Positions 1-29,951 of a stretch of 29,951 nt of DNA are shown here, in pieces (position 1 is the stretch's first letter; every line of letters begins with the position of its first letter). The notes under the pieces were generated by a model that saw only the letters and a list, made by a program, of their open reading frames with translations, was not told where the DNA came from and searched no databases. The translations under genes were made by a program, and so were the position numbers. The DNA lies in the IMG/VR virus record IMGVR_UViG_3300044476_000088, positions 1 to 29,951 of that record. One strand, given 5' to 3'. Origin of the DNA: a virus. Taxonomy: Duplodnaviria; Caudoviricetes.

Positions 1-1069
1 ACATGGGGCCTGGAGCCCCACCCGCCTTGAAGATGACGAAGTTCAAACCTGCTACGCCGAGCCCCTTGAGCGCGGCCTGCATCTTGTCGTCGCCCTTCTG
101 CTGCTGCACGGCAGTGTCATACGTGGCGATGCCTGCCTCCATGCCGGTGAGCGCGTCGGCGAGCTTGCCACCCGCCAGGAAGCCCACCACTGTTCCCGGC
201 AGCTCCTCGATCTGATTCACGAAGCCACGGCCCAGCATGTGATAATCGGGATTCTTGAAGGTATTGCCGGAGTCGTCCGTCAAGTATTCTGCTACAGCTT
301 CCTTCTTGCCGTAGCCCATCAGGCCGGTGAGGTAGTCGCTCGCGCCCAGCGCCTTCTGGTAAAACTTGCTCTGGTTCACGTCATCCAGAATGGCCTTGGC
401 CTTCGAGGAACCCTGTGGATCATGCAGCGTATCACCGATGTCCAGAGCTTCAGCACCAGCCTCGACGGCAGCACCCACCGTGCCCACCAGCTTGGCACCC
501 GCGCGCGTCATAGCACTACCGGCACCGCCCAACGTGGCAGCACCCATGGAGTGCAGCTCACCCATGACGTCTACGCCCATCTGCTCCAGGCCATACTGTG
601 CTACGCCAGTGACGGGGGAGAGGAACTTCAGGTAGCCGGGAACCTGGGCCTCTTCGCGTGCGGCCACGGCGCGCTGCTGCATCACGCGGCTGCGCTCCAT
701 CATCACGGCCTGCCACTGCTTCGGCGTCAGCGAGTCGGTGCGGAACTTGTCGGACAGCTCCTCCATGGCGCGCACGCCATCGAAGTCGTCCCAGCTCATC
801 GCGGCGAGCGCGGGATCCGCGTAGAACTTCGCTGTCTTCGGCAGCTTGCGCGCGAGATCGCCCAGCCCGAACTTATTCAGTCGCGAGGCCATCTCTGCAT
901 CCCGCGTCTCACTGAGACGTGCGGCCGCATCCGGCGCGATACCAAGCTCCTGTCCCTTGGTGTAGTTCTTCGCGAATTCGTCTGGATTCTGGCGAACCCC
1001 ATACGCAACGGACTGCTCCAGCTGCGCCGAGTCATCGCTGAAGTATTTCTGCACCAGCTCATTGGTCAT
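1..1069 (-). CDS. Large internal virion (ejection) protein, N-terminal part; runs off the left window edge
   Basis: Not in the ORF track. ATG at 1069 overlaps the TGA of the 564-aa gene (ATGA). It reads MTNELVQKYFSDDSAQLEQSVAYGVRQNPDEF... with no stop to the edge. Ala/Gly-rich; lies after the other internal virion genes. Confidence 0.75.
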   Translation of the reverse strand, partial: MTNELVQKYFSDDSAQLEQSVAYGVRQNPDEFAKNYTKGQELGIAPDAAARLSETRDAEMASRLNKFGLGDLARKLPKTAKFYADPALAAMSWDDFDGVRAMEELSDKFRTDSLTPKQWQAVMMERSRVMQQRAVAAREEAQVPGYLKFLSPVTGVAQYGLEQMGVDVMGELHSMGAATLGGAGSAMTRAGAKLVGTVGAAVEAGAEALDIGDTLHDPQGSSKAKAILDDVNQSKFYQKALGASDYLTGLMGYGKKEAVAEYLTDDSGNTFKNPDYHMLGRGFVNQIEELPGTVVGFLAGGKLADALTGMEAGIATYDTAVQQQKGDDKMQAALKGLGVAGLNFVIFKAGGAPGPM

Positions 1070-2760
1070 CGCTTGGCCCCCATGCCTTGGTTCTGCAGCT
1101 TGTAGAGAGGATCGTTCATCACCAGCGTGATCGTGTCACGCACCGTCTCAGGTGTGATCTTGATGCCGTTGTTCTTGAGCCAGATCTTCGCTTCCTCCAT
1201 CTTAGCCGGATCGTAACCCAAGTCATCCACGTTGGTGACCTTGAAGAGTGGTGCCTCATCCTGCCCACGCCAGAAGTGCGATGTCTTCAGCACCACGGTG
1301 GAGAGCTGCTTGTCGAAGATCTTCTGCTGCTCCTCGTCGTTGAGCGGTCGCCCATACTTCCGCTGCTTCTCTGCGATCTCGTTGATGCACGCGTGCTGCA
1401 GCGCGGCGTAGTCTTCGATCTGCCGCTGCGAACGCTTGCCGGTGCCCTTGTAGCCATACGCTTCCGCCGTCGCCTTGAACTGGTCGGCAGCGAGCGTGAC
1501 GTTGGAGAGCCCCGCCTCACTCTTGAGAGCTGCACCACGCAGGCGTAGCAGGTCGTCAAAGTAGGAAGGACCGACCACAGGCATCAGCGTCTTGATTTCC
1601 TTGTCGCTATACTTCAGCAGCTCGCGCGGGTTGTCCATGTAGTAGGAGAACGCGATGGCCTTGTCGGCCTGCTCCTGTGGGCTGAGCGTGTTCGTGAGAT
1701 GGTTGTTGTAGGTCTTCCAGTCGGTGAGGAACTTCGCACGCTGGTCGCCATCGAGCTTCAGCCACTGGGGCGTGAGCTGGATCTTGGCGAAGTTCATGGT
1801 GGGCACGTTGGGATTCAGGCCGGTGACCATGTCCCACACGTCGCCGTAGTAGACGCCCTGCTGCTTCGTGCGCAGTGTCTCCCGTTCGCGCAGGTCTTCG
1901 AGCGCGGCCTTCTGTGCTTCGGGCTTGCCCTTGAACTGATTGCGCAGCGCGTCGGCCTTCTGCTCTAGGTTGAGGCTCGTGTCCGCCCATACCGTGTTCA
2001 CCGACTCGGTGACGGTAAGGATCGCCTCCTTCTTGTCGAGGTAGTCGTTCACCTTGGTGAGCGTGTCCGGCGTCAGCTCGTTCATGTGCGAGTTGGTGTA
2101 GGCACGCGCGCCAGCGATGTCATCTTTCTCCGCGTAGCGTCCGATGACCGACGTGTGAAACTGGTCATACGCCTTGCCGGTCATCAGCTTGACGCTCTCG
2201 TCGGAGAGCCCCTTCATCTGGGCGAGCGTCTGGATGGACGTGTCCATCTTACCCTGCAGCACGCCGAGCGTAGCAGCGTCGTTGTAGTTGTTCGCGGCGT
2301 CGTCCAGCACGAGCTGCATCGTGTCCGTCTGCTGCTGAAGGGAGTGGTTCATCATCTGCTGCGCTTCGTGTTCGTTCACACCGCGCTGCAGGGCCATGCC
2401 CGATACCGTCGCCTGCTTGTTGAACAGCTCCTGCTGATCAGGAGTCAGGTCCATCGCCAGCTCGCTGGACCTGTCCTTGTATTGCTGCATGTAGCGATCA
2501 GTGAACGAGACGCCATCCTTCGGCAGCACGTTCTTCCCGAGCTGCTGCGTGTAGTCCTTGGCGATCTCGATCCGCTTGCGCTCCAGTTCGTTGGCAGCTT
2601 CCGTCACGCGCGCGGTGTCGGCCTGCTGCTTCATGAACGACACGGCCTTTCCCAGTAGCTCCGTCGGGTTCTCCTTCGGAACGTAGACCTCCTGCTGCGG
2701 CATGGCAGGCAGAGCGTTCGTGCTGATCTGCTGCGTTGGAATCCCAGGCACACTAGGCAT
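1066..2760 (-). CDS. Internal virion protein (564 aa, alpha-helical)
   Basis: Long Gln/Ala/Lys-rich ORF with an MPSVPG start typical of podovirus ejection proteins; synteny after tail tubular B. Confidence 0.7.
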   Translation of the reverse strand: MPSVPGIPTQQISTNALPAMPQQEVYVPKENPTELLGKAVSFMKQQADTARVTEAANELERKRIEIAKDYTQQLGKNVLPKDGVSFTDRYMQQYKDRSSELAMDLTPDQQELFNKQATVSGMALQRGVNEHEAQQMMNHSLQQQTDTMQLVLDDAANNYNDAATLGVLQGKMDTSIQTLAQMKGLSDESVKLMTGKAYDQFHTSVIGRYAEKDDIAGARAYTNSHMNELTPDTLTKVNDYLDKKEAILTVTESVNTVWADTSLNLEQKADALRNQFKGKPEAQKAALEDLRERETLRTKQQGVYYGDVWDMVTGLNPNVPTMNFAKIQLTPQWLKLDGDQRAKFLTDWKTYNNHLTNTLSPQEQADKAIAFSYYMDNPRELLKYSDKEIKTLMPVVGPSYFDDLLRLRGAALKSEAGLSNVTLAADQFKATAEAYGYKGTGKRSQRQIEDYAALQHACINEIAEKQRKYGRPLNDEEQQKIFDKQLSTVVLKTSHFWRGQDEAPLFKVTNVDDLGYDPAKMEEAKIWLKNNGIKITPETVRDTITLVMNDPLYKLQNQGMGAKR

Positions 2761-2763
2761 CAG

Positions 2764-3306
2764 CTACTCCCAGAATTTGCGGGTTTTCCCGCCGCTGTAG
2801 TTACCGGCCATGATCGTCCCGGCCATGCCCAGCTCGGATGATAGCTTGGCGTTGTCCGCCGCTGAGCTGTAATTGTCCGCAGTGCGGAAGCCATACTCTG
2901 CAGCCTGCCGATGCCCGTAGGCTTCACGCATCGTGTTGCGCATGATCGTCTGTAGGTCGGCGTCGGTCACCTGATCGGTTTCGTTTGCTACAGATTGAAA
3001 GCTACCCGAACCAGCCACGACACCAGAAGCTCCCATAGCAGCGAGCTGGCTTCCCTTGTATCGGCGAGCAGACTTCGCGTATTTCTCGGCATCCTCCGCG
3101 CCACGTTGATCCGAATCCGCCGCGCGCTGCAGTTCATATGCTGCGTTCTCCTTCGAGTTCTGGGCCTGCGTGTCGAGTGTCTTCTTCTTCTCCTTGCCGC
3201 TGGTGTATTGCCCATACAGGTCGAGTCCCGTTGTCGCAATGTCCAGCCAGCTAGACCCGGTGGAAGCCTTGCTACCAGACTTGAATAGGTTGCTCAAGAA
3301 TCCCAT
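2764..3306 (-). CDS. Small internal virion protein (T7 gp14 / Bbp11-like)
   Basis: 180 aa, Ala/Gly/Ser-rich, with the GSQLAAMGASGVVAGSGS segment typical of this family; AGGAGG RBS; synteny. Confidence 0.75.
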   Translation of the reverse strand: MGFLSNLFKSGSKASTGSSWLDIATTGLDLYGQYTSGKEKKKTLDTQAQNSKENAAYELQRAADSDQRGAEDAEKYAKSARRYKGSQLAAMGASGVVAGSGSFQSVANETDQVTDADLQTIMRNTMREAYGHRQAAEYGFRTADNYSSAADNAKLSSELGMAGTIMAGNYSGGKTRKFWE

Positions 3307-3309
3307 CGC

Positions 3310-5889: not shown

Positions 5890-6485
5890 CACAACCTCGA
5901 CAGAACGAGCGGACCATCAGGCTCTGGCCCACGTTGCAGTTGACTCATGTCCCGCGCAGCGGCCATCGCCAGCAGCTTCTCAGCGAGTAGCATCAGCTCG
6001 CCCTGCATGTCCATCTTGCCGAGCGGCACGCAGATGCGTGACGCGATCATCACGGCGAGCCCCTCCACCACGTCGGGAGGGAACAGCGTGCTGTCGTCGA
6101 TGATGCCGGTATAGCGCAGCGTGGCTTCCGTCTCGTCAGTGAAGAGGACACGCTGGCCATCATACCAACCCAGCTCGAAGGGCACGCTCATGTCACCGGT
6201 GGGATACCTCGCGCCGATGGAGAGGATGCACTGCACGTCCAGGCAGTCGCTTGGCAACGCGTAGCAGTAATACCAATTCGGGATCAGCTCGGATCCCTTG
6301 AGCGAGAGGACCAGCGTCTTCTGCGCGAAGCTCCACGGGTAACGCTGCAGCATCATGTTGCGGCAGATCTCGTAGAACCTGTTGCACGCGACACCAGCAG
6401 GGGTCGTGTCATCAAGGCCGACGATGGTGTCCTGACTCAGCACGTAGCCGAGAGCCATGTTGCAGATGTCTACGTCAGCAGCCAT
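5889..6485 (-). CDS. Tail tubular protein A / head-tail adaptor
   Basis: VDICNMALG, YPWSFA and YALPSDCL motifs; directly upstream of tubular B; AGGAGG RBS. Confidence 0.88.
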   Translation of the reverse strand: MAADVDICNMALGYVLSQDTIVGLDDTTPAGVACNRFYEICRNMMLQRYPWSFAQKTLVLSLKGSELIPNWYYCYALPSDCLDVQCILSIGARYPTGDMSVPFELGWYDGQRVLFTDETEATLRYTGIIDDSTLFPPDVVEGLAVMIASRICVPLGKMDMQGELMLLAEKLLAMAAARDMSQLQRGPEPDGPLVLSRL

Positions 6486-6500
6486 CGTCGGCCTCCTTGT

Positions 6501-6761
6501 TTAGATGACTCGTCCAGAACCCTTGCGCGCAGCGGGTTCGTTGCTTTCAGCGAGCGAAGGCTTCTTCGACTCCAGCACGCCGGGGAGGCTGACCTCATTG
6601 TCCAGCACCCTGTCATAGACTTTGCCGGAAGCGTCGACGAACGGCTTGCCGTCCACGAGCATCCAGCGGTTCGAGGTCGTGCCTTCGGGAACCTCGAACT
6701 CATCACCGGGATTGCGTATGACGTCGAAGTAGCCGATTTCAAGAGCGAGTGCTTTAGGCAT
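6501..6761 (-). CDS. Small hypothetical virion-cluster protein (Bbp15-like position)
   Basis: 86 aa with GYF..IRNPGDEFEV motif; AGGAGG RBS; between cement and tubular A genes. Confidence 0.7.
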   Translation of the reverse strand: MPKALALEIGYFDVIRNPGDEFEVPEGTTSNRWMLVDGKPFVDASGKVYDRVLDNEVSLPGVLESKKPSLAESNEPAARKGSGRVI

Positions 6762-6780
6762 TGCGTGTTCCTCCTACAGG

Positions 6781-6812
6781 AGAAGAGCTGCGAGGACCGA
6801 AGTCCTCGCAGC
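6781..6812 (-). terminator. Rho-independent terminator after the capsid/cement genes
   Basis: Minus strand GCTGCGAGGAC-TTCG-GTCCTCGCAGC (11-bp stem, C(UUCG)G tetraloop) followed by TCTTCT. Confidence 0.85.
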
Positions 6813-6822
6813 GAGGTTATGA

Positions 6823-7281: not shown

Positions 7282-7297
7282 GGTCGGGTTCTCCTTA

Positions 7298-8299: not shown

Positions 8300-8302
8300 G
8301 TG

Positions 8303-10830: not shown

Positions 10831-10831
10831 G

Positions 10832-14433: not shown

Positions 14434-14489
14434 AGGACACCTCGACATCAATTGTCAAGTCCTACGCTTCCCACGTCAAATGCTACACG

Positions 14490-14777
14490 ATTTCACTTTA
14501 CTTTGAAGTCCTCATAACCCGCGCCACCATTGGATGGGAGGGACACGCCCCGCCCGAAGTTGCTTCGGTTCATGAAACTCATTGAAATGACGCAGAACCA
14601 ATGACGGCGCGACTTTGGACGTAGTTCATTTCAGTATTTCACTTCCTTTTAAAATTCTAAGGTGAGAAATATAGAGGGTAGTGTATTTCTCCTTTTTATA
14701 ATGGATTTCGAAAAAAGTGAAATTCGAATAAACACCACGTAGACCCGCACCAGCATTGGGTTTGAGTCATTTCACTT
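14490..14777. repeat. Iteron-like repeat cluster in AT-rich intergenic DNA (candidate origin or packaging site)
   Basis: ATTTCACTT at 14490, 14636 and 14769 (+) and 14715 (inverted); CCAATGnnGGYGCG at 14598 (+), 14520 and 14746 (-). Confidence 0.7.
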
Positions 14778-15226
14778 TGCCTCGCCAAACTGAAGCAAAT
14801 TTGGCCGGTGACTACAAAATAGGCATTTTTTTGTAAAATACCGGCGTGAAAACAACCTTTTGAGGTTTGAGTAGGTTTTCTTCGATGGTGCTCAGTGGCA
14901 GCAATAGTTCCACAGCAACATTGCTCGAAGACACTGTGCCTTCTAGGTCGGACGTCGTAGATCCTTTCCCATGGCCCGTTCCATGCGAATTAATCTTATA
15001 TCATCGTAAAATTACGGGTTACATAATCATTTTTCGCGTAGCAAATTATCGATGGTTCATCATTATTTCGCTGTATACCGTCGGACATGCTGAGTGTTGG
15101 TGCGGTTCTACATGCCACTTTTTTGGACTCGCCTTAGAAAGTAGGTGGTTTGAAAAAGCCCTTGGCACCACTGCGTCTCCAAGGACTGTCGATAATTTCC
15201 CATTGGTGGCTCATCATGATTTTCGG

Positions 15227-15235
15227 TGATATACT
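15227..15235 (+). promoter_or_regulatory. Extended -10 promoter for the primase-helicase gene
   Basis: TG-A-TATACT about 105 nt upstream of ATG 15342. Confidence 0.55.
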
Positions 15236-15341
15236 CCGATTCCCGCCGGACCTGTGGCCTTGTGGTGGGGTTGGATGCCTCTCCAGCATCCCGGCAGGCA
15301 TGCCGCACAGGTTCGGCACTCACCACTTTTGAGGAGATCAC

Positions 15342-17312
15342 ATGCCCGAACTCGCCCCTTCAACCCTGGCAAAACTGGCTCAGTCGAGACTGACCGCAGA
15401 GGATGCCGAGCTACTCCAGATCCACTCCATCGATGCAGACGAAGCCGCCACGCGAGGGTTCGCACCCCGTGGCGGCTTCGTCATTCCCTACTTCGACCTC
15501 GATGGCAAGCCCACGAGCTTCTGTCGTGTGCGCTACATCGATCCTCCCAAACCCAATGGCTTCAAGGCTCTCCCGTCGAAGCCGCAGAAGTATGCACAAC
15601 TCCCTGGCACGTTGAACGAGGTCTACCTCCCCCCATTTGTCGATTGGCGCGCTGTAGCAGATGACACTGAGGTGCCCATATTCGTCACTGAAGGCGAGCT
15701 GAAGTCTGCGTGCGCAACGCGTCTGGGCCTGCCTACGCTGGGCCTGGGCGGTGTATGGAACTTCCGCGCAGCGAAGCAGAACATCCTGTGGCTCCCACAA
15801 CTCGACGAGATCAAGTGGAGTGATCGCACGGTGTTCATCGTGTTCGACAGCGATGCCGTCAACAATCCGATGGTGCGCGCTGCCGAGTCAGCCATCGGGC
15901 GCATGCTTTTGGAGAAGGGCGCAAAGCCCCTGGTGGTGCGGCTTCCCGAAGAGACGAAAGGATTCGACGATTGGATCGTCGCGCGTGGAATCGAGAGCAT
16001 CGACGAGCTGACGGACCAGCTCGGCACGTTGCCCACCGATCCTGTGGATCAACTCTCAGTGGAGCTGCACCGCCTGAACGAAGAGGTGGTCGCCATCCTC
16101 GCTCCACCGTGCGTGATGGCGTTGCGCTCGCTGGATCGCATTCGTGTCGGCGACTTCCTCGGGATCACGCACAGTGATCGGATCGTGCGCGAGGTCAACG
16201 CGAAGGGACAGCTCGTCGCCCATAGCGCAGCGAAGAAGTGGCTGCAGTGGCCGGGCCGCGCGAAGGCGCAAGGGCTCGACTATCGTCCCGGCGAACCGCA
16301 GTGGCTCGACGATGGTCGTATCAATCTGTGGCGTGGGTGGGGCTGCACGCCCAAGACGGGTGACGTCGCTGCGTTCGAGGAGTTCGTGAAGTTCGCTGGC
16401 CTCTCCGAGTGGTTCGTCCAGTGGCTCGCGTATCCTCTGCAGCATCCCGGCGCGAAGCTGCACAGTGCTGTCGTGTTGTGGGGCGCGGAGACGGGCACCG
16501 GCAAGAGCCTGCTCGGTGAGGTCATGACCTCTATCTATGGCGACAATGCCACGGCCATCGATGACTCGCGCCTGAACTCACGCTTCAACTCGTGGGCCGC
16601 GAACAAGAGCTTCGTCGTGGGCGAGGAGATCACCGGCGCGGAGAGCAGGCAGCTCGCCAACAAGGTGAAGGACATGATCACGCGACGCACGCTGCGCATC
16701 GAGCAGAAGGGGCTGGATACCTACGAGCTGATCGATCACTGCAACTACCTGCTCCTCTCCAATATGCCCGACGCGTTTCGTATTGACCGCAAGGACCGCC
16801 GCTTCTACGTCCACGAGATGCCTGAGAGGAAGCTGCCGCCAAAAATCATCGCTGGCATGAAGGCACTGAAGGCTGATCCGTCCGCACTGTTCGAGCATCT
16901 GCTGCACATCGACCTCGCTACCTTCGATCCTCATGGTGAGCCACCGATGACGACGGCGAAGCTTGAGATGATCTGCGACAGCCAGAGCGACGTGGAGTCG
17001 TGGATCATGCGGCACCTTCCGAACCTGCGCCTCGCCAGTGCCGAGGAGCTGCTGCACGCCTACGAGCCCGACGCGACCCGTCGGCGCATCAAGGCCAATG
17101 GCATGACGCGCTCGCTCAAGCTGCAAGGCTACCGCCACGTCTATGGTGGCGCTCAGATCCGTTTGACCAACGGCACTCAGGTAAGACTGTTCGCCATCGC
17201 GGCAGACGCAAAGGACCGGCAGTGGCTGCTGCAGCCACGACGCACGGTGACGGAGCTGCGTGAGATCTACGAGACAGAGCATCCTGCAGGCAGCAAGCCC
17301 AGGTATAAGTGA
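15342..17312 (+). CDS. Primase-helicase (DUF3854/Toprim-like N-terminus plus DUF5906/SF3-type helicase)
   Basis: IPYFDLDG, KYAQ, VTEGELKS, GLGGVW, IVFDSD and KGFDD (Toprim); WLAYPLQHPG, Walker A GAETGTGKS, VVGEE and DRRFYV. GAGGAG RBS. Confidence 0.9.
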   Translation: MPELAPSTLAKLAQSRLTAEDAELLQIHSIDADEAATRGFAPRGGFVIPYFDLDGKPTSFCRVRYIDPPKPNGFKALPSKPQKYAQLPGTLNEVYLPPFVDWRAVADDTEVPIFVTEGELKSACATRLGLPTLGLGGVWNFRAAKQNILWLPQLDEIKWSDRTVFIVFDSDAVNNPMVRAAESAIGRMLLEKGAKPLVVRLPEETKGFDDWIVARGIESIDELTDQLGTLPTDPVDQLSVELHRLNEEVVAILAPPCVMALRSLDRIRVGDFLGITHSDRIVREVNAKGQLVAHSAAKKWLQWPGRAKAQGLDYRPGEPQWLDDGRINLWRGWGCTPKTGDVAAFEEFVKFAGLSEWFVQWLAYPLQHPGAKLHSAVVLWGAETGTGKSLLGEVMTSIYGDNATAIDDSRLNSRFNSWAANKSFVVGEEITGAESRQLANKVKDMITRRTLRIEQKGLDTYELIDHCNYLLLSNMPDAFRIDRKDRRFYVHEMPERKLPPKIIAGMKALKADPSALFEHLLHIDLATFDPHGEPPMTTAKLEMICDSQSDVESWIMRHLPNLRLASAEELLHAYEPDATRRRIKANGMTRSLKLQGYRHVYGGAQIRLTNGTQVRLFAIAADAKDRQWLLQPRRTVTELREIYETEHPAGSKPRYK

Positions 17313-17370
17313 AACGATATGCTGCCTCGTGTAGCATTAAAATTATGAATTGGACCCCGCGTCTGTAGCA

Positions 17371-17408
17371 GTGAGATGCTTTGGGCTCAGCATTACAATT
17401 CCTTGACA
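17371..17408 (+). promoter_or_regulatory. Candidate sigma70-type early promoter(s)
   Basis: GTGAGA-N17-TACAAT (17371-17399) and a perfect TTGACA at 17403 without a clear -10, in an AT-rich gap before the early ORFs. Confidence 0.4.
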
Positions 17409-21196: not shown

Positions 21197-21228
21197 AAGA
21201 GGGAGCGTGCTACACACGCTCCCTCTTT
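21197..21228 (+). terminator. Rho-independent terminator-like hairpin
   Basis: AAGAGGGAGCGTG-CTACA-CACGCTCCCTCTT, a 13-bp stem with only a short T run. Confidence 0.65.
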
Positions 21229-21245: not shown

Positions 21246-23093
21246 GTGATCACCATCGACTTCGAGACTGCGCGCATCGAGCGCCGTCCACACTACCCAC
21301 CCAAGCCGGTGGGCGTTGCCATCAAGATCGGCGCGCGCAAGGCCAGGTATTATGCGTGGGGCCATCCCACCGAGAACAACTGCACGTTCGAGGAAGCGCG
21401 CACCGCGTTGCGCGAAGCCTACGTGAGCGGCGAGCCGCTGCTCTTCCACAATGCCAAGTTCGATCTCGAAGTAGCGGAGAAGCACTTCGGGCTCAGCATC
21501 CCGTCCTGGGAGCGCATCCACGACACGATGTTCCAGGTGTTCCTCTGCGAGCCCTACGCAACGACCTTCGCGCTGAAGCCCACCGCTGAGCGCGTGCTGG
21601 GCCTGCCGCCTGAAGAGCAGGACGCGGTGCATGCGTGGCTGCTGGAGAAGCGCATCGTCACCAAGGTCCAGAAGGACTGGGGCGCCTACATCTCTGAAGC
21701 TCCCGGCAAACTGGTCGGACGCTACGCCGTCGGCGACGTCGAGCGCACCTACGCGCTGCACAAGAGGCTGTTCGCGCAGATCCTCTCCATGGATATGGGC
21801 GCGGCGTATGATCGCGAGCGCAGGCTCATGCCGATCTTGCTACGCAACGAGCAGCAGGGCCTGCGCGTGGACCTCGAAGCTCTCACGCGCGATGTCCTCG
21901 CCTACGACGCCGCGATGTTCGACGCTGACGCATGGCTGCGCAAGCGGCTGAAGACTCCGTCGCTGAACGTGTCCTCCAATGAGGAGTTCGCCGACGCGCT
22001 GGAGCGTGCTGGCGTGGTCACCGAGTTCATGTTGACGGCGAAGGGCAACCGCTCCGTCGCCAAGAACTCCCTGGTCGGAAGCATGTTCAAGGACCAGGAA
22101 GTCTTCCGCGTCTACGGCTACCGGAATCGGCTTGCTACATGCGTCGGCACGTTCATGCTGCCCTGGAAGGAACTGGCCGAAGCGAACAAGGGGCGGATCC
22201 ACACGTCGTGGAACCAGATCAAGAGCATGGACGGCGGCGCGAAGACGGGCCGGATGTCATCCTCCCCCAACTTCCAGAACATCCCGAAGATGTTTGCTAC
22301 AGGCAAGGAAGCACAAGGATGGGACTACCCCACGAAGGTGACGCTCCCGCTCCTCCCACGGCTACGTAGCTACGTTCTGCCGGACAAGGGCGAGGTCTTC
22401 TGCCATCGAGACTACAGCCAGCAGGAGATCCGCGTCCTCGCGCACTACGAGAACAGCACGCTCCTCGACGCGTTCTTGATGGCAAAGCCACCGGCAGAGT
22501 TGTGCGACGCCGCTGGCCGCATCGACATCCACAAGTTCGTGCAGGTATCGATCAAGAACCAGCTCGGCATGGCGTTGGAGCGCGGCGCGGTGAAGACAGT
22601 CAATTTCGGCATGCTCTACGGGATGGGCCTTGCTACGCTGGCCGCGCGCCTGGGCGTGTCGGACGACGAGGCACGCACGATCCGCGACGCGCAGCGCAGC
22701 GTGATGCCAGGGATGCTGGAGCTGGACAAGGAGCTGAAGCTCATCGGCAGGTCCGGCGACTTCATGCGCACCTGGGGTGGTCGTGTCTACTATCGCGAGC
22801 CTGACGACGAGCGCGACCTGTCCTACAAGATGCTGAACCACTTAATCCAGGGCAGCTCGGCGGACATCACCAAGCAGGCCCTGATCAACCTGGACGCGCG
22901 CGACGATTTCAGAGGACGACTGCTCGTCACCGTCCATGATGAAATCAACACGAGCAGCAAGCCTCGCGACGTAGCACACAACATGCGCGTCATGCGCGAA
23001 GCGATGCTGGACATCGACGGCATCGACGTGCCGATGATCTCTGACGGAAAGACCGGACCACGCTGGAGCGATCTTCAGCCCTACAAAGGATGA
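21246..23093 (+). CDS. polA: Family A DNA polymerase with 3'-5' exonuclease
   Basis: GTG start with GGAG RBS; Exo I DFET, Exo II HNAKFD, Exo III YAVGD; TGRMSS; motif A DYSQQEIR, motif B KTVNFGMLYG, motif C TVHDE. Confidence 0.95.
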   Translation: MITIDFETARIERRPHYPPKPVGVAIKIGARKARYYAWGHPTENNCTFEEARTALREAYVSGEPLLFHNAKFDLEVAEKHFGLSIPSWERIHDTMFQVFLCEPYATTFALKPTAERVLGLPPEEQDAVHAWLLEKRIVTKVQKDWGAYISEAPGKLVGRYAVGDVERTYALHKRLFAQILSMDMGAAYDRERRLMPILLRNEQQGLRVDLEALTRDVLAYDAAMFDADAWLRKRLKTPSLNVSSNEEFADALERAGVVTEFMLTAKGNRSVAKNSLVGSMFKDQEVFRVYGYRNRLATCVGTFMLPWKELAEANKGRIHTSWNQIKSMDGGAKTGRMSSSPNFQNIPKMFATGKEAQGWDYPTKVTLPLLPRLRSYVLPDKGEVFCHRDYSQQEIRVLAHYENSTLLDAFLMAKPPAELCDAAGRIDIHKFVQVSIKNQLGMALERGAVKTVNFGMLYGMGLATLAARLGVSDDEARTIRDAQRSVMPGMLELDKELKLIGRSGDFMRTWGGRVYYREPDDERDLSYKMLNHLIQGSSADITKQALINLDARDDFRGRLLVTVHDEINTSSKPRDVAHNMRVMREAMLDIDGIDVPMISDGKTGPRWSDLQPYKG

Positions 23094-23308
23094 CCGCCAT
23101 GTTCGAGGAAGAAGTTCAGAAGGTTCTCGATCTGCTACACGCAGAACAGGGAGCCTATCTCAAGCTGATCGCGGCAGGCGATGACGCCCCCAAGGAGCTG
23201 CACCACGCCTACGGTGAGTGCATCGCGGCGCGCGTCACCGCCGAGATGAGTCTCATCGGATCGCTGCGCAAGCATGTGATGGGGGATCCCGATGCCGTGG
23301 TCATATAG
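23090..23308 (+). CDS. Hypothetical protein (72 aa)
   Basis: ATGA overlap with the polymerase stop. Confidence 0.65.
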   Translation: MTAMFEEEVQKVLDLLHAEQGAYLKLIAAGDDAPKELHHAYGECIAARVTAEMSLIGSLRKHVMGDPDAVVI

Positions 23309-23942
23309 TCGCTGGCAGTGCTACCGGCAGTGCCCCGCGAAGTTCGCGCATCAATACGTGTGGAAGACGCCGGTGGAAGTAGCACCGAGCGCGGCCCTAG
23401 CGCGTGGCAACGAGATCCACGAACATGCTGAGCGGTTCGTGAATGGCGAGGTAGACGATCTGCACGAGTCACTCTACCGATTGGAGAAGGGCCTCCGCGA
23501 TCTACGCAAGCGCGGTGCTATCGCCGAGAGTGGGTGGGGCCTTACCGAGGAGTGGGAGCCCATCGAGTGGGACCACCGCAGCGTGTGGCTTCGGTTGAAG
23601 GTCGACGTGCTGCATCCGCTCGGGAAGAGCGGCGCGAAGATCATCGACTACAAGACCGGCAAGTGCTACCCGGACCACCCAGAGCAACTCGGCCTCTACG
23701 CGCTCGCCACGTTCCGAATGTTCCCAGAGCTGGAGATCATCCACGCTGAGGACTGGTATGTGGACACCGGCATCGTCAGCAAGACTGAGACGTTCACCAA
23801 ACGCGAGGAGCCAATGCTACGCAAGATGTGGTCAGGCCGCGCCAAGCCTCTGTTCGAGGACACCGTCTACGCACCCACGGCGAACAAGTTCTGCAAGTGG
23901 TGCCCCTTCTCAAAGTTGAACGGAGGACCGTGTGAGTTCTAA
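23292..23942 (+). CDS. PD-(D/E)XK Cas4/RecB-like exonuclease
   Basis: WSYSR..Y.QCP, RGNEIH, E, KVD, IIDYKTG, QLGLYAL and C-terminal CKWC...C (4-Cys Fe-S pattern). Confidence 0.9.
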   Translation: MPWSYSRWQCYRQCPAKFAHQYVWKTPVEVAPSAALARGNEIHEHAERFVNGEVDDLHESLYRLEKGLRDLRKRGAIAESGWGLTEEWEPIEWDHRSVWLRLKVDVLHPLGKSGAKIIDYKTGKCYPDHPEQLGLYALATFRMFPELEIIHAEDWYVDTGIVSKTETFTKREEPMLRKMWSGRAKPLFEDTVYAPTANKFCKWCPFSKLNGGPCEF

Positions 23943-24153
23943 ACCGAAAGTCAACATCACCAAGATCCACGTTGCCATAGAGGTCTGCGACCTCTTCGGC
24001 AACGGCGACTGCCTCACTGCTACAACGGACGCGGTGCTCAGCCCTGACGTGCTGGATCGTGTGACGCTCCATCCCAAGGAGTTGCCTCGCGTAGCAGCGG
24101 AGATGGCGAAGGCCGTCCTCGGCGGCATCGACACGAGGTATACGCTGCCATGA
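23932..24153 (+). CDS. Hypothetical protein (73 aa)
   Basis: GTG start with GGAGGA RBS; overlaps both neighbours. Confidence 0.65.
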   Translation: MSSKPKVNITKIHVAIEVCDLFGNGDCLTATTDAVLSPDVLDRVTLHPKELPRVAAEMAKAVLGGIDTRYTLP

Positions 24154-24719
24154 GACGAGAGCGAGATCTCATCGAACGCCCCGTCTGTGCGTGGGCGAAG
24201 AAGCATGGGATCCTCTACACCAAGAACGAACTGCACCACCATGCGGGATGGCCGGACGCGACGTTCTACATCGCCGGTGGCCGTCCCGTCATGCTGGAGT
24301 TCAAGGATCCCGCCGGTCTTGTCTCACCCATCCAACTGCACACCATCACACAACTGAGGAGCCTAGGCTATGAAGTCCACGTTGTCTTCAGCAAGGAAGA
24401 CGGCATCGCAGTTCTGGAAGCCGCACGAGTATCAGCTCAGAGCGGTGCAGCGGTGCATCGAGGTCGGCGCGCAGATGCTGATCCTGGACCCAGGTCTGGG
24501 GAAGACGAGCATCACGCTCGCCGTCGCGTCGCTCCTGCGGCAGAAGAAGATCATCCGCCGCACGCTGATCATCGCACCGCTCCGCGTGTGTCAGCTCGTG
24601 TGGCCTGCGGAGCTGAAGAAGTGGAGCGACTTCGCGCACCTTTCACTAAACGTGCTACACGGCAAGGACAAGGAGAAGCTGTTCCAACAGCAGGCCGACA
24701 TCGACGTGATAAATCCTGA
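24150..24719 (+). CDS. VRR-NUC domain nuclease
   Basis: ERDLIE...GWPD...LEFK..G..SPIQ....QLRSLGYEVHVV in the first ~90 aa; the rest overlaps the helicase gene. Confidence 0.85.
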   Translation: MRRERDLIERPVCAWAKKHGILYTKNELHHHAGWPDATFYIAGGRPVMLEFKDPAGLVSPIQLHTITQLRSLGYEVHVVFSKEDGIAVLEAARVSAQSGAAVHRGRRADADPGPRSGEDEHHARRRVAPAAEEDHPPHADHRTAPRVSARVACGAEEVERLRAPFTKRATRQGQGEAVPTAGRHRRDKS

Positions 24720-25848
24720 TGGTCTGGAGTGGCTGCTCGCGCACCCGAACATCGAATACGACATGCTCGTGGTCGACGAGTCCACGATGTTCAAGAACAC
24801 GCAGTCGAAGCGGTTCAAGCTGCTGAAGAAGCACCTCAACAAATTCCAGCGACGCTACTGCCTCACCGGCACGCCAGCATCGAACGGCCTGGAGGATCTC
24901 TTCGGGCAGGTCTACGTGCTGGATCAAGGCGGCACCTTCGGACGCTACGTCACGCACTTCCGTCAGGAGTTCTTCTTTGCTACAGGGTTCGGCGGCTACA
25001 CGTTGGTGCCGAAGCCTCACGCAGAGGAGCGCATCTATGAGAAGCTGTCTCCGCTTGCTACGCGCATGGCCGCGTCCGACTATCTGGAACTGCCACCGCT
25101 GATCAACAACACGATCCTCGTGGAACTGCCGCCCACCGCTGCGCGTTGCTACGCAGAGATGGAGCAGCAGTTCCTCACCGAGCTGCTGGACGGCACCACC
25201 ATCACTGCGGTGAACGCTGCCGTCAAGAGCGGCAAGCTGCGCCAGATCGCTGCCGGTGGGCTGTTCCTTCCCAGCGGTGAGGAGTGGGAGAACCTCCACA
25301 TGGAGAAGACCACCGCGCTGCGCGAGCTGACGGAGTCGATCCCCGGCAGGCCGGTCCTCGTAGCATTCGAGTTCCAGCACGACCTGGATCGCCTGCAGCA
25401 GGAGTTCGGCAAAGACCTGCCCTACATCGCCGGTGGTGTGAACGAGAAGCGTGTGAAGGAACTGGAGCGCGAGTGGAACCTGGGCCGCCTGCCGATCCTG
25501 GCAGGGCATCCCCGCTCCATGGGCCACGGGCTCAACCTGCAGGAGAGGTCAGACACCGTGGTCTGGCTGACGCCCACCTGGGATCTGGAGCTGCACGACC
25601 AGTTCATCCGGCGCGTCTGGCGGCAGGGCAACAAGGCCCCCCATGTCAACTGTCACTACCTGATTGCTCAGGGCACCGTAGATGAAGCGGTGATGCTGGC
25701 AATCGCGAACAAGAGCCGAACTCAAAATTCTTTGCTACTTGCCTTGCGCGAGTATGCTACACTGAAGGCCAACCATAAGGAGTCCCACCATGAAGCTCGC
25801 AATCAACAAGTCCAACAAGACCCAGTCCGTCGTCATCGGCGAAACTGA
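24370..25848 (+). CDS. SNF2-family (SF2) helicase
   Basis: PHEYQ, LDPGLGKT, IIAPLRV, VVDES, LTGTP, GHGLNLQ and RVWRQG; GAGGAG RBS. Confidence 0.93.
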   Translation: MKSTLSSARKTASQFWKPHEYQLRAVQRCIEVGAQMLILDPGLGKTSITLAVASLLRQKKIIRRTLIIAPLRVCQLVWPAELKKWSDFAHLSLNVLHGKDKEKLFQQQADIDVINPDGLEWLLAHPNIEYDMLVVDESTMFKNTQSKRFKLLKKHLNKFQRRYCLTGTPASNGLEDLFGQVYVLDQGGTFGRYVTHFRQEFFFATGFGGYTLVPKPHAEERIYEKLSPLATRMAASDYLELPPLINNTILVELPPTAARCYAEMEQQFLTELLDGTTITAVNAAVKSGKLRQIAAGGLFLPSGEEWENLHMEKTTALRELTESIPGRPVLVAFEFQHDLDRLQQEFGKDLPYIAGGVNEKRVKELEREWNLGRLPILAGHPRSMGHGLNLQERSDTVVWLTPTWDLELHDQFIRRVWRQGNKAPHVNCHYLIAQGTVDEAVMLAIANKSRTQNSLLLALREYATLKANHKESHHEARNQQVQQDPVRRHRRN

Positions 25849-26548
25849 GCGCGGCGTCACAATGTTTTCTGTGATCGGTGCCAAGCTGCAGTTCTGCTAC
25901 ATGCAGCGCCCCGACTTCGAACTGCAATTCCGCATGACCAAGAACGACGGCAGGGAGCTGCTCAAGGTCTGGACGGAGAGCGACAGCATCGAGATCACTG
26001 CCGAAGCCCTCAGCCAGCTCCAGACCATGAAGATGCTGGAGAAGCCCATCCTCGCCGACGCCAAGGTCACGAAGGAACCGAAGCCTTCGACGAAGCCGGT
26101 GGTGCAGCAGACTGCGCCTGCGCCTGCTCCGAAGGTCGAGGAGAAGAAGGCTGCGCCTGCGCCTGCTCCGAAGGTCGAGGAGAAGAAGCCTGCGCCTGCG
26201 CCTGCGCCTGCACCGAAGGTGAAGGCCGAAGAGAAGAAGCCTGCGCCGAAGGCGAAGCCTGTAGCAAAGAAGGTCGAAGAGAAGAAGCCTGCGCCGAAGG
26301 CGAAGCCTGCTCCGAAGGCGAAGAAGCCTGAGCTGAAGACCCAGCCCCAACTCTCCATCGTCCAGGGCTCCTGCCCTGACGCCGTGCTGCGTGAGATCAA
26401 GCGGCACAAGAACGCTGTCACCGCTCCCCAGGTGTTCGACAAGCTTGGCGACGACTTCTCCTGGGACAACGTCCGCACTGCTATGTTCCGGCTGGAGCGC
26501 ATGCGCCTGATCAAGCGCGTCGGGCGTGGTGAGTTCGTTGCCGCGTAG
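25790..26548 (+). CDS. Protein with Ala/Pro/Lys repeat linker and C-terminal winged-helix-like domain
   Basis: TAAGGAG RBS; APAPAPKVEEKK repeats; C-terminal VTAPQVFDKL...NVRTAMFRLERMRLIKRVGRGEF. Confidence 0.8.
   Translation: MKLAINKSNKTQSVVIGETERGVTMFSVIGAKLQFCYMQRPDFELQFRMTKNDGRELLKVWTESDSIEITAEALSQLQTMKMLEKPILADAKVTKEPKPSTKPVVQQTAPAPAPKVEEKKAAPAPAPKVEEKKPAPAPAPAPKVKAEEKKPAPKAKPVAKKVEEKKPAPKAKPAPKAKKPELKTQPQLSIVQGSCPDAVLREIKRHKNAVTAPQVFDKLGDDFSWDNVRTAMFRLERMRLIKRVGRGEFVAA
26111..26330 (+). repeat. Intragenic tandem repeats (~39-nt unit, APAPAPKVEEKK / KPAPKA)
   Basis: GCGCCTGCGCCTGCTCCGAAGGTCGAGGAGAAGAAG twice exactly, then degenerate copies. Confidence 0.9.
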
Positions 26549-26562: not shown

Positions 26563-26664
26563 ATGGAGCCGCTCGTCGCCGCGATCTGCAACGCCTGCGA
26601 CGAGCAGCTTACCTGCCCTCTCGCCTACCTCGGAAACGGATGCCTGCCTACGGAGAAGCCATGA
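26563..26664 (+). CDS. 33-aa Cys-rich microprotein
   Basis: MEPLVAAICNACDEQLTCPLAYLGNGCLPTEKP; AGGAG RBS; ATGA overlap with the next gene. Confidence 0.55.
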   Translation: MEPLVAAICNACDEQLTCPLAYLGNGCLPTEKP

Positions 26665-27305
26665 CCCCATCCAAACTCGCCGAAATCCTGCGCCTGCACA
26701 AGCTCTGGCTAAAGGGTGACACTACCGGGCAGTGTGCCGACCTGCGCTACATCAACCTGAGCAGAGCCGATCTGAGCAGAGCCGACCTGCGCAACGCCGA
26801 CCTGCGCGACGCCGACCTGCGCGGTGCCGACCTGCGCAACGCCGACCTGCGCAACGCCGACCTGCGCGGTGCCGACCTGCGCAACGCCGACCTGCGCGAC
26901 GCCGACCTGCGCGGTGCCGACCTGCGCAACGCCAACCTGAGCAACGCCGACCTGCGCGAGGCCGACCTGCGCAACGCCAACCTGAGCAGAGCCTACCTGT
27001 ACTACGCCAACCTGCGCGGAGCCTACCTGAGCGAGGGCCTGATTGCATCCACCGTCCGCGCTATGGACGGCCTATACAAATACCCCTGCTGGGCCGTAGT
27101 CGCCTCTGATGGCACCCCCTGGGTGCGTATGGGGTGCCTCTGGAAGACGGTCGAGGAGTGGGACCGCATCGGCATTAGGAACAGTAATCCCGAGGAGTTC
27201 AAGCGCGAGTCGTCGGAGGATTCCGCGAGACGCGCCAGGACGTTCTACTTCGTTCGGGAAGAGGCTCTGATCCTAGCCAAGCAGTTCAAACGTGCCTCGG
27301 CGTGA
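26661..27305 (+). CDS. Pentapeptide repeat protein
   Basis: Start moved to ATG 26661 (GGAG RBS); L.EILRLHKLWL leader, 20 A(D/N)LRx units and C-terminal VRMGC...VEEW domain. Confidence 0.92.
   Translation: MTPSKLAEILRLHKLWLKGDTTGQCADLRYINLSRADLSRADLRNADLRDADLRGADLRNADLRNADLRGADLRNADLRDADLRGADLRNANLSNADLREADLRNANLSRAYLYYANLRGAYLSEGLIASTVRAMDGLYKYPCWAVVASDGTPWVRMGCLWKTVEEWDRIGIRNSNPEEFKRESSEDSARRARTFYFVREEALILAKQFKRASA
26736..27035 (+). repeat. 15-bp tandem repeat (GCCGACCTGCGCnnn), 20 units
   Basis: Encodes the pentapeptide repeats. Confidence 0.92.
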
Positions 27306-28554: not shown

Positions 28555-28557
28555 GTT

Positions 28558-29085
28558 TCAGAACGAGATCGAGGCTACGAGGTAGCCGCGCGTCTCGTCG
28601 CGGTCATGGGTGACGATCCCTCCCAGGCTCACAGGTCCAAGCCTGCGCAGGTATCCCAGCAGGTAGCTCTGCTCGGCTGGATCATAGCCGCCCAGCAGCG
28701 TGTGGTTCGTTGGTGCTGCGACGGGCTTCGTCTGCACGACGATGTCATGCCCTGTGACCGCGCCGTCAGGACTGCTCACCACCACCCGTGTCTGCCCGTC
28801 CGGCGTCTCCACCAACGTAGCATCCACATGGACCTCCCTGCCCTCGGGGTTTGAAGTGGGTGTTACGGTAATCTCCTCGACGCGTAGCACACGCGCTCCG
28901 CTGGGAAGTGCGTGCCGCGCCTTCGCCTTCGGGCTGGCCTCCTTCTGCAGCACCACGCTGCCGTCGCCCTGCGCGATTGCAGGAGCATTCACCTCGGCAA
29001 CCGCAGGCTTCGGGCGGAACATCCACCACCCGAGCGAGAACCCCACGGTGAGCGCGAGTCCTCCCACGATGACGTGTGACCTCAT
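28558..29085 (-). CDS. Lysis-cassette membrane protein (spanin-like position)
   Basis: N-terminal TM; beta-rich body ending in GYLVASISF; AGGAAGG RBS; ATGA-coupled to the holin. Confidence 0.7.
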   Translation of the reverse strand: MRSHVIVGGLALTVGFSLGWWMFRPKPAVAEVNAPAIAQGDGSVVLQKEASPKAKARHALPSGARVLRVEEITVTPTSNPEGREVHVDATLVETPDGQTRVVVSSPDGAVTGHDIVVQTKPVAAPTNHTLLGGYDPAEQSYLLGYLRRLGPVSLGGIVTHDRDETRGYLVASISF

Positions 29086-29303
29086 TTGTCGCCTTCCTTC
29101 CTGATCCGATTGCCGAACGCTTCAACGGTGAGCCCTCCCGTGATCATCAAACAGAACGTGCCGAACGCGTAGTTCCACTCGGTGGTCAGCTCGCGGTTCG
29201 AGAGCCACACGATGGCGGCTACAACACCAGCACCATACGCCAGCAGCTTGATCTCGGCAGTGTGGTCCTGCCGATCCCACAGACTCTTGAGCCATCGCCA
29301 CAC
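29082..29303 (-). CDS. Putative holin (2 TM)
   Basis: 73 aa, two hydrophobic segments, charged C-tail RIRKEGDK; GAGGAGG RBS; directly after the endolysin. Confidence 0.75.
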   Translation of the reverse strand: MWRWLKSLWDRQDHTAEIKLLAYGAGVVAAIVWLSNRELTTEWNYAFGTFCLMITGGLTVEAFGNRIRKEGDK

Positions 29304-29717
29304 TTATGCCTCCTCGTAGCATGGCCGTCCCTGCACTCTGCGCATGCGCAGCGTCTGACGGCGAGGTTTCTCAGCCCAGCTCACATGGATCCACGTAGGC
29401 TCGATGATGAGTTGGTCGTAGGGGATCTCCGAACTCTTGATGCGGTGGAACGCTTCCTCCAATGACATCGTAAGGGGCAGCACGTCCGCTGCTTGACCTT
29501 TCATGTGCTGCGAGTTCTTGGCGGATCCAGCGATGGCGGCGTTCACTGCCACCGTGCGGAAGCCTGAGTTGACGCGCAGTGGGCCGACAAGGATGCGCGC
29601 TGGTTCCAGGATGGTTTTGCACAACCGCACCAACGCTGCGAGCTGTACAGCGTTGGGCGTGTTGGGCAGACCTGTGCCTGTAGCAGTCAGCTCCTCCATG
29701 GAGAAGTGATCGGACAT
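29304..29717 (-). CDS. Endolysin, peptidase M15 (M15_3/M15A-like Zn peptidase)
   Basis: SDHFSMEEL, NSGFR...N..I.G..NSQHMKGQAAD, YDQLIIE and WIHVS. Confidence 0.9.
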   Translation of the reverse strand: MSDHFSMEELTATGTGLPNTPNAVQLAALVRLCKTILEPARILVGPLRVNSGFRTVAVNAAIAGSAKNSQHMKGQAADVLPLTMSLEEAFHRIKSSEIPYDQLIIEPTWIHVSWAEKPRRQTLRMRRVQGRPCYEEA

Positions 29718-29719
29718 CC

Positions 29720-29951
29720 TTACCATTCCATCCTCGGCGCGTCAGCGAGCAGCTCTTCCTTCGTTGGTGCTACACGCTTACCGGCTGTCACATCCGCCAT
29801 GACCTGGTAGCCGTAACTCCAGACCGCGTCGCGGAAGGAGAGCCCCTTCATCCCCTCGTGACCGAACTTCGGATGAGGACTGGCGGCATAGGAACAGAGC
29901 GACAAGATCCCGTCGTAATTACGGGTTTTCGCCTCGGTGTCCATGTAGGCC
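29720..29951 (-). CDS. C-terminal part of a tail-fibre-associated phage protein (enters from the right edge)
   Basis: Frame is open past the edge (..AYMDTEA..); YDGILSLCSYA.S..PKF..EG.....RDAVW...P..EEL..P..W pattern typical of proteins following tail fibres. Confidence 0.65.
   Translation of the reverse strand, partial: AYMDTEAKTRNYDGILSLCSYAASPHPKFGHEGMKGLSFRDAVWSYGYQVMADVTAGKRVAPTKEELLADAPRMEW

Follow-up and report, generated by a model that had tools for sequence, protein, structure and literature searches.

Introduction

Lytic phages are known for the loss of short DNA words. Words that are iterated across a genome have been described in several other settings. The stoperators of cluster A mycobacteriophages, which are temperate, are sites of about 13 bp that follow the direction of transcription and number 20-30. 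Phage primases recognize short sites (GTC in T7, GTT/GCT in T4, GCA in SP6), and those of SP6 and T4 make G-started primers. Chi sites are often G-rich, the HIP1 element of cyanobacteria is a palindrome tied to a methyltransferase and DNA uptake sequences are 9-12 bp long and host-wide. Among proteins that coat DNA, Rok and H-NS are host-encoded, silence AT-rich DNA with only loose specificity and are built from an N-domain, a flexible basic linker and a DNA-binding domain (a winged helix in Rok).

Here we describe a word iterated across 29,951 bp of a Caudoviricetes phage (IMG/VR record IMGVR_UViG_3300044476_000088), the whole stretch being referred to as the window:
50..29773, both strands: dispersed TGCTAC/GTAGCA copies (n = 80), with preference TGCTAC(A>G>T>C)

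Like cluster A stoperators, which are bound by a phage helix-turn-helix protein, the copies are many, asymmetric, genome-wide and located inside genes; unlike stoperators, they are only 6-7 bp long, number 80 in 30 kb and are orientation-free. They resemble phage primase sites as dispersed short words with Okazaki-scale spacing but have six strict bases, no strand bias and no counterpart in the phages with a homologous primase that were compared. As a strict, asymmetric word, TGCTAC could in principle protect linear DNA as Chi does, yet its sequence differs and it shows no enrichment or polarity in the bacteria sampled, a sample that may not include the host. Iteration over coding sequence, on both strands and with random spacing, recalls HIP1 and uptake sequences, except that TGCTAC was seen in one phage only. 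Finally, the word is an asymmetric 6-mer with A at position 5, as are BREX type 1 PglX sites (PMC12707154, PMC11341690), but such sites are a liability for an unmethylated phage whereas here they are enriched and followed by a graded seventh base. Every described phage system in this comparison (stoperators, primase sites, Chi, methylation targets) falls short of a full match.

Results and Discussion

The phage and its site avoidance

The phage is likely a lytic podovirus, with no integrase or repressor cassette seen in the window, and about 10-13 kb of its genome likely lies beyond the window. The regions relevant to the word are:
2..1069, minus strand: truncated N-terminus of a large LPD22 inner-virion protein, with a 2416-aa homologue in the relative G001
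14450..15340, no strand: AT-rich divergent intergenic region with two copies of the word, a putative genome end/origin region
15342..17312, plus strand: primase with Toprim (DUF3854) and D5-like helicase (DUF5906) domains, a rival reader of the word
21246..25848, plus strand: family A polymerase, PD-(D/E)XK exonuclease, VRR-NUC-like nuclease and SNF2-type helicase

The terminase-end/primase-end layout around 14450..15340 is the same as in phages AXL3 and PW916. The genes at 28558-29950 (lysis module) lie on the minus strand, which corrects the first-pass annotation of this DNA. The phage has purged many restriction-type palindromes and is under heavy restriction pressure: 20 of the 64 six-base palindromes are absent from the window, GWGCWC is present once (45 expected) and GTAC three times. 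As initially reported, no methyltransferase was found among the 48 ORFs scanned. The sole PHROG match labelled methyltransferase spans the helicase C-domain only.

The word exceeds what the genes require

An exact count yielded 44 TGCTAC and 36 GTAGCA, or one copy per 374 bp, close to the roughly 79 (43/36) counted by hand at first pass; around 14.5 kb the copies divide 16/16 to the left and 28/20 to the right (previously 16/16 and 27/20). Markov models of order 0, 1, 2 and 3 expect 12.6, 9.3, 13.6 and 35.4 copies (z 7.5 for order 3), and the word is the top-ranked hexamer under all four. The first-pass annotation had proposed higher-order Markov and codon-shuffled nulls, and the two part ways. 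An order-4 model expects 70.7 copies (z 1.1) and reproduces the count, but the word's own 5-mers go into it (TGCTA extends to TGCTAC in 80 of 88 cases); its fit is therefore no proof of chance and means that the signal is visible at the 5-mer level too. Synonymous-codon shuffling of 41 curated genes (n = 1000) fails to reproduce the count, giving 10.1±2.6 copies (maximum 20) against 70 observed (73 vs 10.6 with a provisional gene set), so that in-gene copies are about 7 times more frequent than the genes require. The word occupies 70 of the 217 protein-compatible positions, with log-odds of use at synonymously possible positions of 3.42±0.16 (about 30-fold odds), compared to 1.4 at most for control words. 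CAGCTC and CTGCGC are also raised about 2-fold, and no second motif, gapped or longer, was found in the window. The enriched 9-mers of the window appear to trace to a pentapeptide-repeat gene.

Logan contigs from run X1, which may be the source sample and would then add no independent biology, agree with the window over long stretches, the only differences being five substitutions and a 6-base gap in positions 1-565, none inside a site. Runs X1 and X2 hold few variants relative to the window, and no RNA run is listed among the holders of its sequence.

The bias is strand-symmetric, strict in its core and graded in its flank

Log-odds are nearly equal on the plus (3.41) and minus (3.43) strands and range from 3.16 to 3.63 across the four strand/half quadrants, the bias being equal in both gene blocks. 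Such absence of polarity is as expected for an orientation-blind reader. Relative to transcription they are 3.50 for sense and 3.31 for antisense copies, and a stoperator or operator of a temperate repressor, which has a fixed orientation, was rejected on these values. The six-base core is strict, and the 18 one-off variants have log-odds near zero. The following base is mostly A or G, as first noted (G 37, A 27, T 9, C 7), and its log-odds are graded (A 4.5, G 3.75, T 2.7, C 1.2). A strict core with a graded seventh base is an affinity-like profile. Spacing is random: across the copies we found no even spacing, orientation runs or 10.5-bp helical phasing, and close pairs are no more frequent than expected (5 vs 8.1). 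Mean spacing per strand is 691 and 804 nt, with gaps of up to 3.9 kb. The 2.9 kb of non-coding DNA, with 7 fully intergenic copies, is about as dense in the word as coding DNA and shows no iteron array of it.

The word is also visible in codon choice and in some stops, and apparently in residues. Val-Ala is spelled GTA GCA in 21 of 69 cases against 0.3 expected from motif-free codon usage, and 3 of the 13 TAG stops fall inside the word, bearing out the rare codons and the three stops noticed at first pass. The intergenic copies listed then (14481, 15038, 17331, 17365, 21208) are all present, along with two more (18619, 28148). Cys-Tyr dipeptides number 9 (3.5 expected), all nine written TGC TAC, and genes in 21246..25848 carry many copies, Cys-Tyr cases included. 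In 5 of 6 testable cases the Cys at a word site is shared by at most 9% of homologues; the same holds for 23 of the 63 Cys elsewhere (Fisher p 0.04). Protein sequence appears bent toward the word; over all testable sites, residue conservation did not differ between used (0.38) and unused (0.39) positions.

The codon shuffle, log-odds and variant profile support the original proposal of a selected DNA-level signal overlaid on coding sequence, and we infer that selection rather than mutation bias drives the excess. Dozens of words have been purged from this phage while one has been gained, at some 30-fold odds. The reader, whatever its nature, would give a per-site benefit across the whole genome, and phage genomes redesigned with synonymous codons can lose functional signals of this kind.

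Distant relatives lack the excess

A comparable motif, sought in relatives as the first-pass annotation had suggested, is absent from all those compared, which are distant (45-67% capsid and mostly <=53% polymerase identity, the comparison lying outside the closest clade, at 59-63% polymerase identity). TGCTAC numbered 957 in 256 related loci (914 expected), with none enriched. Thirty-five of these, distinct after dereplication and sharing the primase architecture at 32-41% identity, gave 127 vs 117 and 61 vs 69 for TGCTAC, without any word of comparable strength. AXL3 and PW916 have 3 and 6 copies in 47 kb. A 2-fold excess in one locus (L116) was discounted as coming mostly from a 36-bp-period repeat. 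The sole DNA match is a 680-bp terminase stretch in CP2-like Xanthomonas phages, and a helicase scan of IMG/VR and a portal scan of GTDB returned no close relatives. Two cluster-pattern scans, covering 2/64 and 15/64 IMG/VR parts with 78 and 79 loci long enough (two of the 78 being pieces of G001), gave at most 2.9- and 3.3-fold excess, from single genes or the selected cluster; we estimate their power as low, at about a 1 in 10 chance per enriched genome. Capsid relatives are spread over many phyla, and isolates that share the replication module infect Xanthomonadales. The literature covered, with few subscription papers, contained nothing relevant to TGCTAC/GTAGCA, either in a phage, motif, methylome or methyltransferase context or by topic.

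A predicted winged-helix protein as candidate reader

Strand symmetry of the bias favors, among the uses listed at first pass, a protein coating or reading double-stranded DNA; promoter-driven ejection and polar signals fit poorly. Our favored, though tentative, reading is that TGCTAC(R) is the site of a lineage-specific dsDNA-binding protein that would coat the genome, most likely the phage's own product of the following ORF, a link drawn from one genome and from predicted structure:
25790..26548, plus strand: candidate reader of 252 aa, described from AlphaFold models, weak Foldseek winged-helix matches and homologues

The model has a folded N-domain (about 1-84), a disordered basic linker rich in Pro, Lys and Ala, and a C-terminal winged helix (pLDDT 86). 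This predicted architecture is like that of Rok and H-NS, but the protein has no significant match to them in sequence or structure. Searches of Pfam, NCBIfam and PDB gave no significant match and no homology to Rok or H-NS; Foldseek gave weak, generic winged-helix matches, none at E<=0.001, with Rok (E 0.014) among many winged helices, and no solved relative fell below E 0.037. Winged-helix look-alikes in the atlas are commonest in Thermodesulfobacteriota (scores under 0.9).

Homologues are scarce: four among 1.84 billion representatives, none in an IMG/VR scan and none in any of the related loci compared. One probably shares an 8151-nt contig with a 59%-identity polymerase, judging from equal sizes. 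Many other ORFs in the window are equally private to the phage. The core genes are common to relatives free of the word, which makes a conserved core function an improbable reader. The protein shows no sign of being a virion component and, thus, could not protect incoming DNA unless packaged.

As we envision it, the winged-helix protein would bind TGCTAC(R) every few hundred bases in either orientation, forming a nucleoid-protein-like coat that may organize or shield replicating phage DNA, our favored benefit. A host rich in restriction systems would be the setting for such benefit, and a few sites may additionally be placed at promoters. More doubtful is the fuller form of this idea, a private, sequence-addressed chromatin in which a winged-helix protein on a both-strand word marks self DNA and shields or organizes it against restriction, even at the cost of altered amino acids. 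Were this protein the reader, it would represent a sequence-based self-recognition or anti-restriction coat, testable in vitro without the host.

Alternative readers

A Toprim-D5 primase could use the word as a start signal on single-stranded templates of both strands, at intervals of about 750 bases. The per-strand spacing is of Okazaki scale, the one-sided graded flank suits a templated primer, and GTAGCA ends in GCA, which would give a G-started primer. We consider this unlikely: the 35 loci with a 32-41% identical primase show no excess, AXL3 and PW916 are poor in copies, gaps are irregular, and the four quadrants lack the bias that a lagging-strand template may be expected to show. Within the primase gene itself the word fills just 1 of 17 possible positions where 5.2 would be expected (P 0.011 before correction, with about 16 genes examined).

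Less probable still is a Chi-like stop for a host RecBCD/AddAB-type helicase-nuclease or a phage exonuclease, limiting chew-back that starts at ends or at restriction cuts, in either direction. Linear or cut DNA needs both orientations, matching the symmetry observed, the word is strict and asymmetric, and restriction pressure on the phage is strong. Bacterial densities fall far below the 2.67/kb of the phage, with maxima of 0.50/kb in 151 genomes from the phylum of a Syntrophaceae MAG and 0.66/kb in 141 Gammaproteobacteria. TGCTACR reaches at most 0.14/kb in 91 Acidobacteriota genomes (2.1/kb in the phage) and TGCTACAC 0.02/kb in 61 genomes from the order of Rhodanobacter (0.27/kb in the phage); these 444 rows are raw counts without a composition null, so that a 2-3-fold excess would escape them, and the host may lie outside. 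Three bacterial contigs examined in detail had no excess or skew, and relatives possess the exonuclease without an enriched word. A 25:1 strand skew in one genome listing was an artefact (25 vs 16 in the actual contig). The word is also unlike G-rich Chi sites and unlike GCTGGCGC, given in PMC5959072. If the reader were the primase or a host nuclease, the word would reveal a new specificity and provide a handle on the host.

We regard as similarly improbable a modification mark, a dense self signal written by a host BREX, type IIG or type III methyltransferase or by an enzyme domain in the part of the injected LPD22 protein beyond the window. The format agrees with that of BREX sites in PMC12707154, but the link goes no further than format: the window contains no methyltransferase and no BREX/PglX locus. 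The LPD22 protein is cut at 356 aa and the 2416-aa homologue has an inserted P-loop domain, which implies that such proteins carry cargo; the missing remainder could hold a DNA-acting enzyme, and the Dar proteins of P1 exert their effect in cis on the DNA that is injected. Against this, Pfam finds no methyltransferase in the relative's large protein, a weak search for a longer LPD22 homologue found none, and the graded seventh base is unlike what we would expect of an all-or-none methyltransferase site. In the passages surveyed, sites in both orientations are a liability with type III enzymes and no known system rewards more sites. The first-pass premise, routine loss of such sites by phages, was too strong, as type I and IIG sites are reported not to be avoided and type III sites only rarely, in a study that does not cover BREX (PMC6286503).

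Very improbable is a role in packaging or ejection, with the terminase or a DNA-pulling translocase as reader. If the genome is circularly permuted, dispersed sites would be suitable, and one copy adjoins the predicted terminase-operon promoter, but these processes are directional and the word is not, and no enriched word occurs in relatives whose terminase, portal and inner-core proteins are homologous. Nor are the sites extended -10 promoters of sigma-70 type (TG-n-TAnnnT), the final T being present in only 12 of the 80 copies (background 19%).

A by-product of biased, HIP1-like repair of near-matches or of displacement from avoided restriction sites is the least probable reading: avoidance strongly reshapes the genome and plausibly raises CAGCTC and CTGCGC, and last-position neighbors are low (5 vs 14.7), but avoidance cannot force GTA GCA when GTG GCG and the like are free, 12 of the 18 one-off neighbors (positions 1, 2, 4 and 5) are near expectation, and TGCTAC is not palindromic.

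Copies near genes and promoter-like matches

Several copies lie at suggestive places:
14451..14486, minus strand: sigma-70-like consensus match at the head of the terminase/virion operon, with GTAGCA 1 nt 5' of the -35
17331..17399, plus strand: two copies 34 bp apart, the second adjoining the -35 of a sigma-70-like match that precedes ORF 17626
21197..21227, plus strand: 13-bp hairpin before the polymerase gene (-25.3 kcal/mol, z -7.4)
25733..25760, plus strand: pair of copies in the same orientation, separated by 22 bp and located shortly before the ORF 25790 RBS

The sigma-70-like scan returned four promoter-like matches (3.5 by chance), two of them with GTAGCA 0-1 nt before the -35, where 0.4% of intergenic positions score so; this adjacency, noticed post hoc, concerns consensus matches only. 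The copy at 21208 forms the loop and stem end of the hairpin. The pair ahead of ORF 25790 makes autoregulation of the candidate reader possible.

An overrepresented hexamer spans the phage genome

We identified 80 exact copies of the word TGCTAC or its reverse complement GTAGCA (44 and 36, respectively) in the 29,951 bp of the window (61% GC), an excess that is a real and strong feature of this DNA. The first-pass annotation had counted 79 and proposed a selected signal; its counts around 14.5 kb (16/16 to the left, 27/20 to the right) stand save for one more copy on the right (28/20), the intergenic copies that it listed are all present and gene stops do fall inside the word (3 of the 13 TAG stops). 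The word ranks first among hexamers under Markov models of orders 0 to 3, which predict 12.6, 9.3, 13.6 and 35.4 copies, respectively. An order-4 model approaches the observed count (70.7 expected) because it is made from the word’s own 5-mers (TGCTAC makes up 80 of the 88 TGCTA). A codon-shuffled null, named beforehand as a possible refutation, did not reproduce the count: the 41 curated genes hold 70 copies vs. 10.1±2.6 after synonymous shuffling (maximum 20 in 1000 shuffles). Contigs assembled separately from sequencing run X1, possibly the source sample itself, give the same sequence.

Proteins encoded by the 41 curated genes permit the word at 217 positions, 70 of which carry it (Cys-Tyr, 9/9; Val-Ala, 21/69; x-Ala-Thr, 22/51). 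Measured against codon usage calculated without the word sites, the log-odds of word use are 3.42±0.16 (~30-fold), compared to 1.4 or less for eight control words. Values are alike on the plus (3.41) and minus (3.43) strands, in sense (3.50) and antisense (3.31) directions and in the four strand-by-block quadrants (3.16-3.63). All six bases are needed, as the 18 one-off variants, each with a purine as the next base, score about zero (largest 0.96 and 0.91), and the seventh base shows a graded preference (A 4.5, G 3.75, T 2.7, C 1.2). Spacing between copies is Poisson-like, overall and within each strand, and searches across the window revealed no orientation runs, helical phasing, regional bias, second motif or gapped motif. 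The excess is strict, strand-symmetric and genome-wide, and neither codon use nor site avoidance explains it. Very probably, it reflects selection for a double-stranded DNA site recognized by some protein reader. We separately ruled out an extended -10 promoter, whose defining test the copies fail.

Modest evidence suggests that amino acids may have been changed to create word sites. Cys-Tyr dipeptides number 9 vs. 3.5 expected, and Cys is rare among homologues in 5 of the 6 testable word Cys-Tyr cases vs. 23 of 63 other cysteines. Overall residue conservation is, however, equal at used and unused word positions, which counts against such changes.

The phage and its relatives

The phage, a podovirus from a sediment metagenome, has a virion module resembling that of BPP-1 and epsilon15, and no close isolate was found by DNA. 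Its gene blocks are:

2-14433, minus strand, virion module (terminase, portal, capsid, tail and inner-core proteins)
28558-29950, minus strand, lysis module
plus strand, block with Toprim-D5 primase, family A polymerase, PD-(D/E)XK exonuclease and SNF2-type helicase

Relatives have genomes of 41-48 kb and the window ends inside the gene of the large LPD22 inner-virion protein, so some 10-13 kb are probably missing. A 4778-nt variant contig in run X1 (5 substitutions and a 6-base gap over 1-565, in the LPD22 gene) runs past the window start; the missing part is therefore present in that run. The related provirus G001 encodes a 2416-aa LPD22 protein (L244:11944-19194), into which a P-loop domain (GGQSSGKT) with no Pfam name is inserted. 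The AT-rich terminase-primase gap contains ATTTCACTTT in direct and inverted copies (14490-14778), possibly origin or packaging repeats. A pentapeptide-repeat protein gene (26661-27305) has one possible word position and zero copies.

Through capsid, terminase, polymerase and primase we fetched 324 loci, 256 of which (duplicates kept) were long enough to test. The first-pass annotation had considered a comparable motif in relatives; none was found among these 256 loci, all distant (957 copies vs. 914 expected; top ratio, 2.1). The distant phages AXL3, PW916 and CP2 have 3, 6 and 7 copies, respectively. Across 181 sequences, the best two-strand word score was 30.5 for the window and 11.1 for the runner-up. 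A closer clade, with polymerases at 59-63% identity, also exists. Two low-power cluster scans of IMG/VR retrieved no second phage with the word. The putative reader is probably a factor that is not conserved in distant relatives. No report of the word in any phage was found in the literature searched, whose coverage was incomplete.

Other loci had enriched words of their own. Milder two-strand excesses occur in the polymerase relatives L061/L150 (CTGCGC, 93 vs. 39), L115/L185 (CAGCGC, 68 vs. 26) and L106 (GCGGCC, 36 vs. 10). By synonymous shuffle, any repeats included, the unrelated IMG/VR contigs L551, L538 and L483 are strongly enriched in GCGGCC (30 vs. 3), GCGGCA (22 vs. 3) and GCCGCA (18 vs. 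3), respectively, and L490, L500 and L547 in AAGTCA (about 3-4-fold).

Candidate reader and alternative explanations

The word’s reader may be the phage’s winged-helix protein (ORF 25790-26548), the leading (if tentative) candidate, which would bind the word as a nucleoid-like coat on the genome. In its predicted structure, residues 1-84 or so form a folded N-domain (pLDDT 75-92), and a disordered linker rich in Pro, Lys and Ala connects this domain to a winged helix at the C-terminus; Foldseek gave weak matches to generic winged helices (including IclR, MotA, Rok and Zur). The protein has four homologues in 1.84 billion representatives and none in any of the fetched related loci. For one of these homologues and for one 59%-identity polymerase, the longest contig is 8151 nt, a hint that this gene may be a marker of the closer clade. 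A pair of words 22 bp apart lies directly upstream of its ribosome-binding site. The assignment is a lead, given that many other ORFs are just as private; the candidate can be tested, and the mechanism is a proposal.

Stoperators, HIP1, uptake sequences, Chi and primase sites are genome-wide iterated words. TGCTAC resembles them all in its iteration but fails a defining test of stoperators, of HIP1 and of primase sites. It is unlikely to be a primase start site: copy spacing is right, but the word lacks polarity and phages with a homologous primase lack it (35 dereplicated loci with the same primase, no excess; 127 vs. 117 and 61 vs. 69). Furthermore, the primase gene (15342-17312) under-uses the word, carrying it at 1 of the 17 positions open to it (vs. 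5.2 expected).

The window shows very strong avoidance of restriction-type sites, a sign of restriction pressure. GTAC has just 3 copies, 20 of the 64 six-base palindromes are missing and GWGCWC occurs once vs. 45 expected, as are depleted GCCCGC (4 vs. 36), CACGGA (0 vs. 20), GAGACC (0 vs. 16) and GGCNGCC (1 vs. 24), some of them asymmetric. These words are a fingerprint of host restriction systems that could serve to identify the host. The primase gene avoids restriction-type words as other genes do. PMC6286503 describes avoidance of orthodox type II sites by phages, rare avoidance of type III sites and none of type I or IIG sites.

A Chi-like stop (compare PMC5959072) agrees with the strand symmetry and this restriction pressure but is rather improbable, as the bacterial genomes sampled give no support. 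Across 444 genome rows covering four bacterial groups, word density was nowhere near the phage’s, on raw counts that a mild host excess would escape. Three genomes in this set carry an unpublished flag, and none of the figures given here depends on them. A modification mark is equally doubtful. Its enzyme could hide in the missing part of the genome, and the scan of 48 ORFs bears out the earlier claim that no methyltransferase is visible in the window (nor was an integrase detected). The likeness to BREX sites noted in the first-pass annotation is one of site format (PMC11341690 on BREX type 1 PglX sites; PMC12707154 on BREX sites, type III site orientation, site loss and Dar shielding). A packaging or ejection signal is quite improbable, and a mutational by-product slightly more so.

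GTAGCA sits 0-1 nt ahead of the -35 box in two of the four sigma-70-like matches, those in front of the terminase operon and of ORF 17626; this is a post hoc observation on a chance number of matches. Two small ORFs lack family matches: a 53-aa Lys/Ala-rich basic protein (21023-21184), possibly DNA-condensing, and, at the thresholds used, a 61-aa ORF after the large terminase (12409-12594) that by eye resembles an excisionase-type helix-turn-helix.
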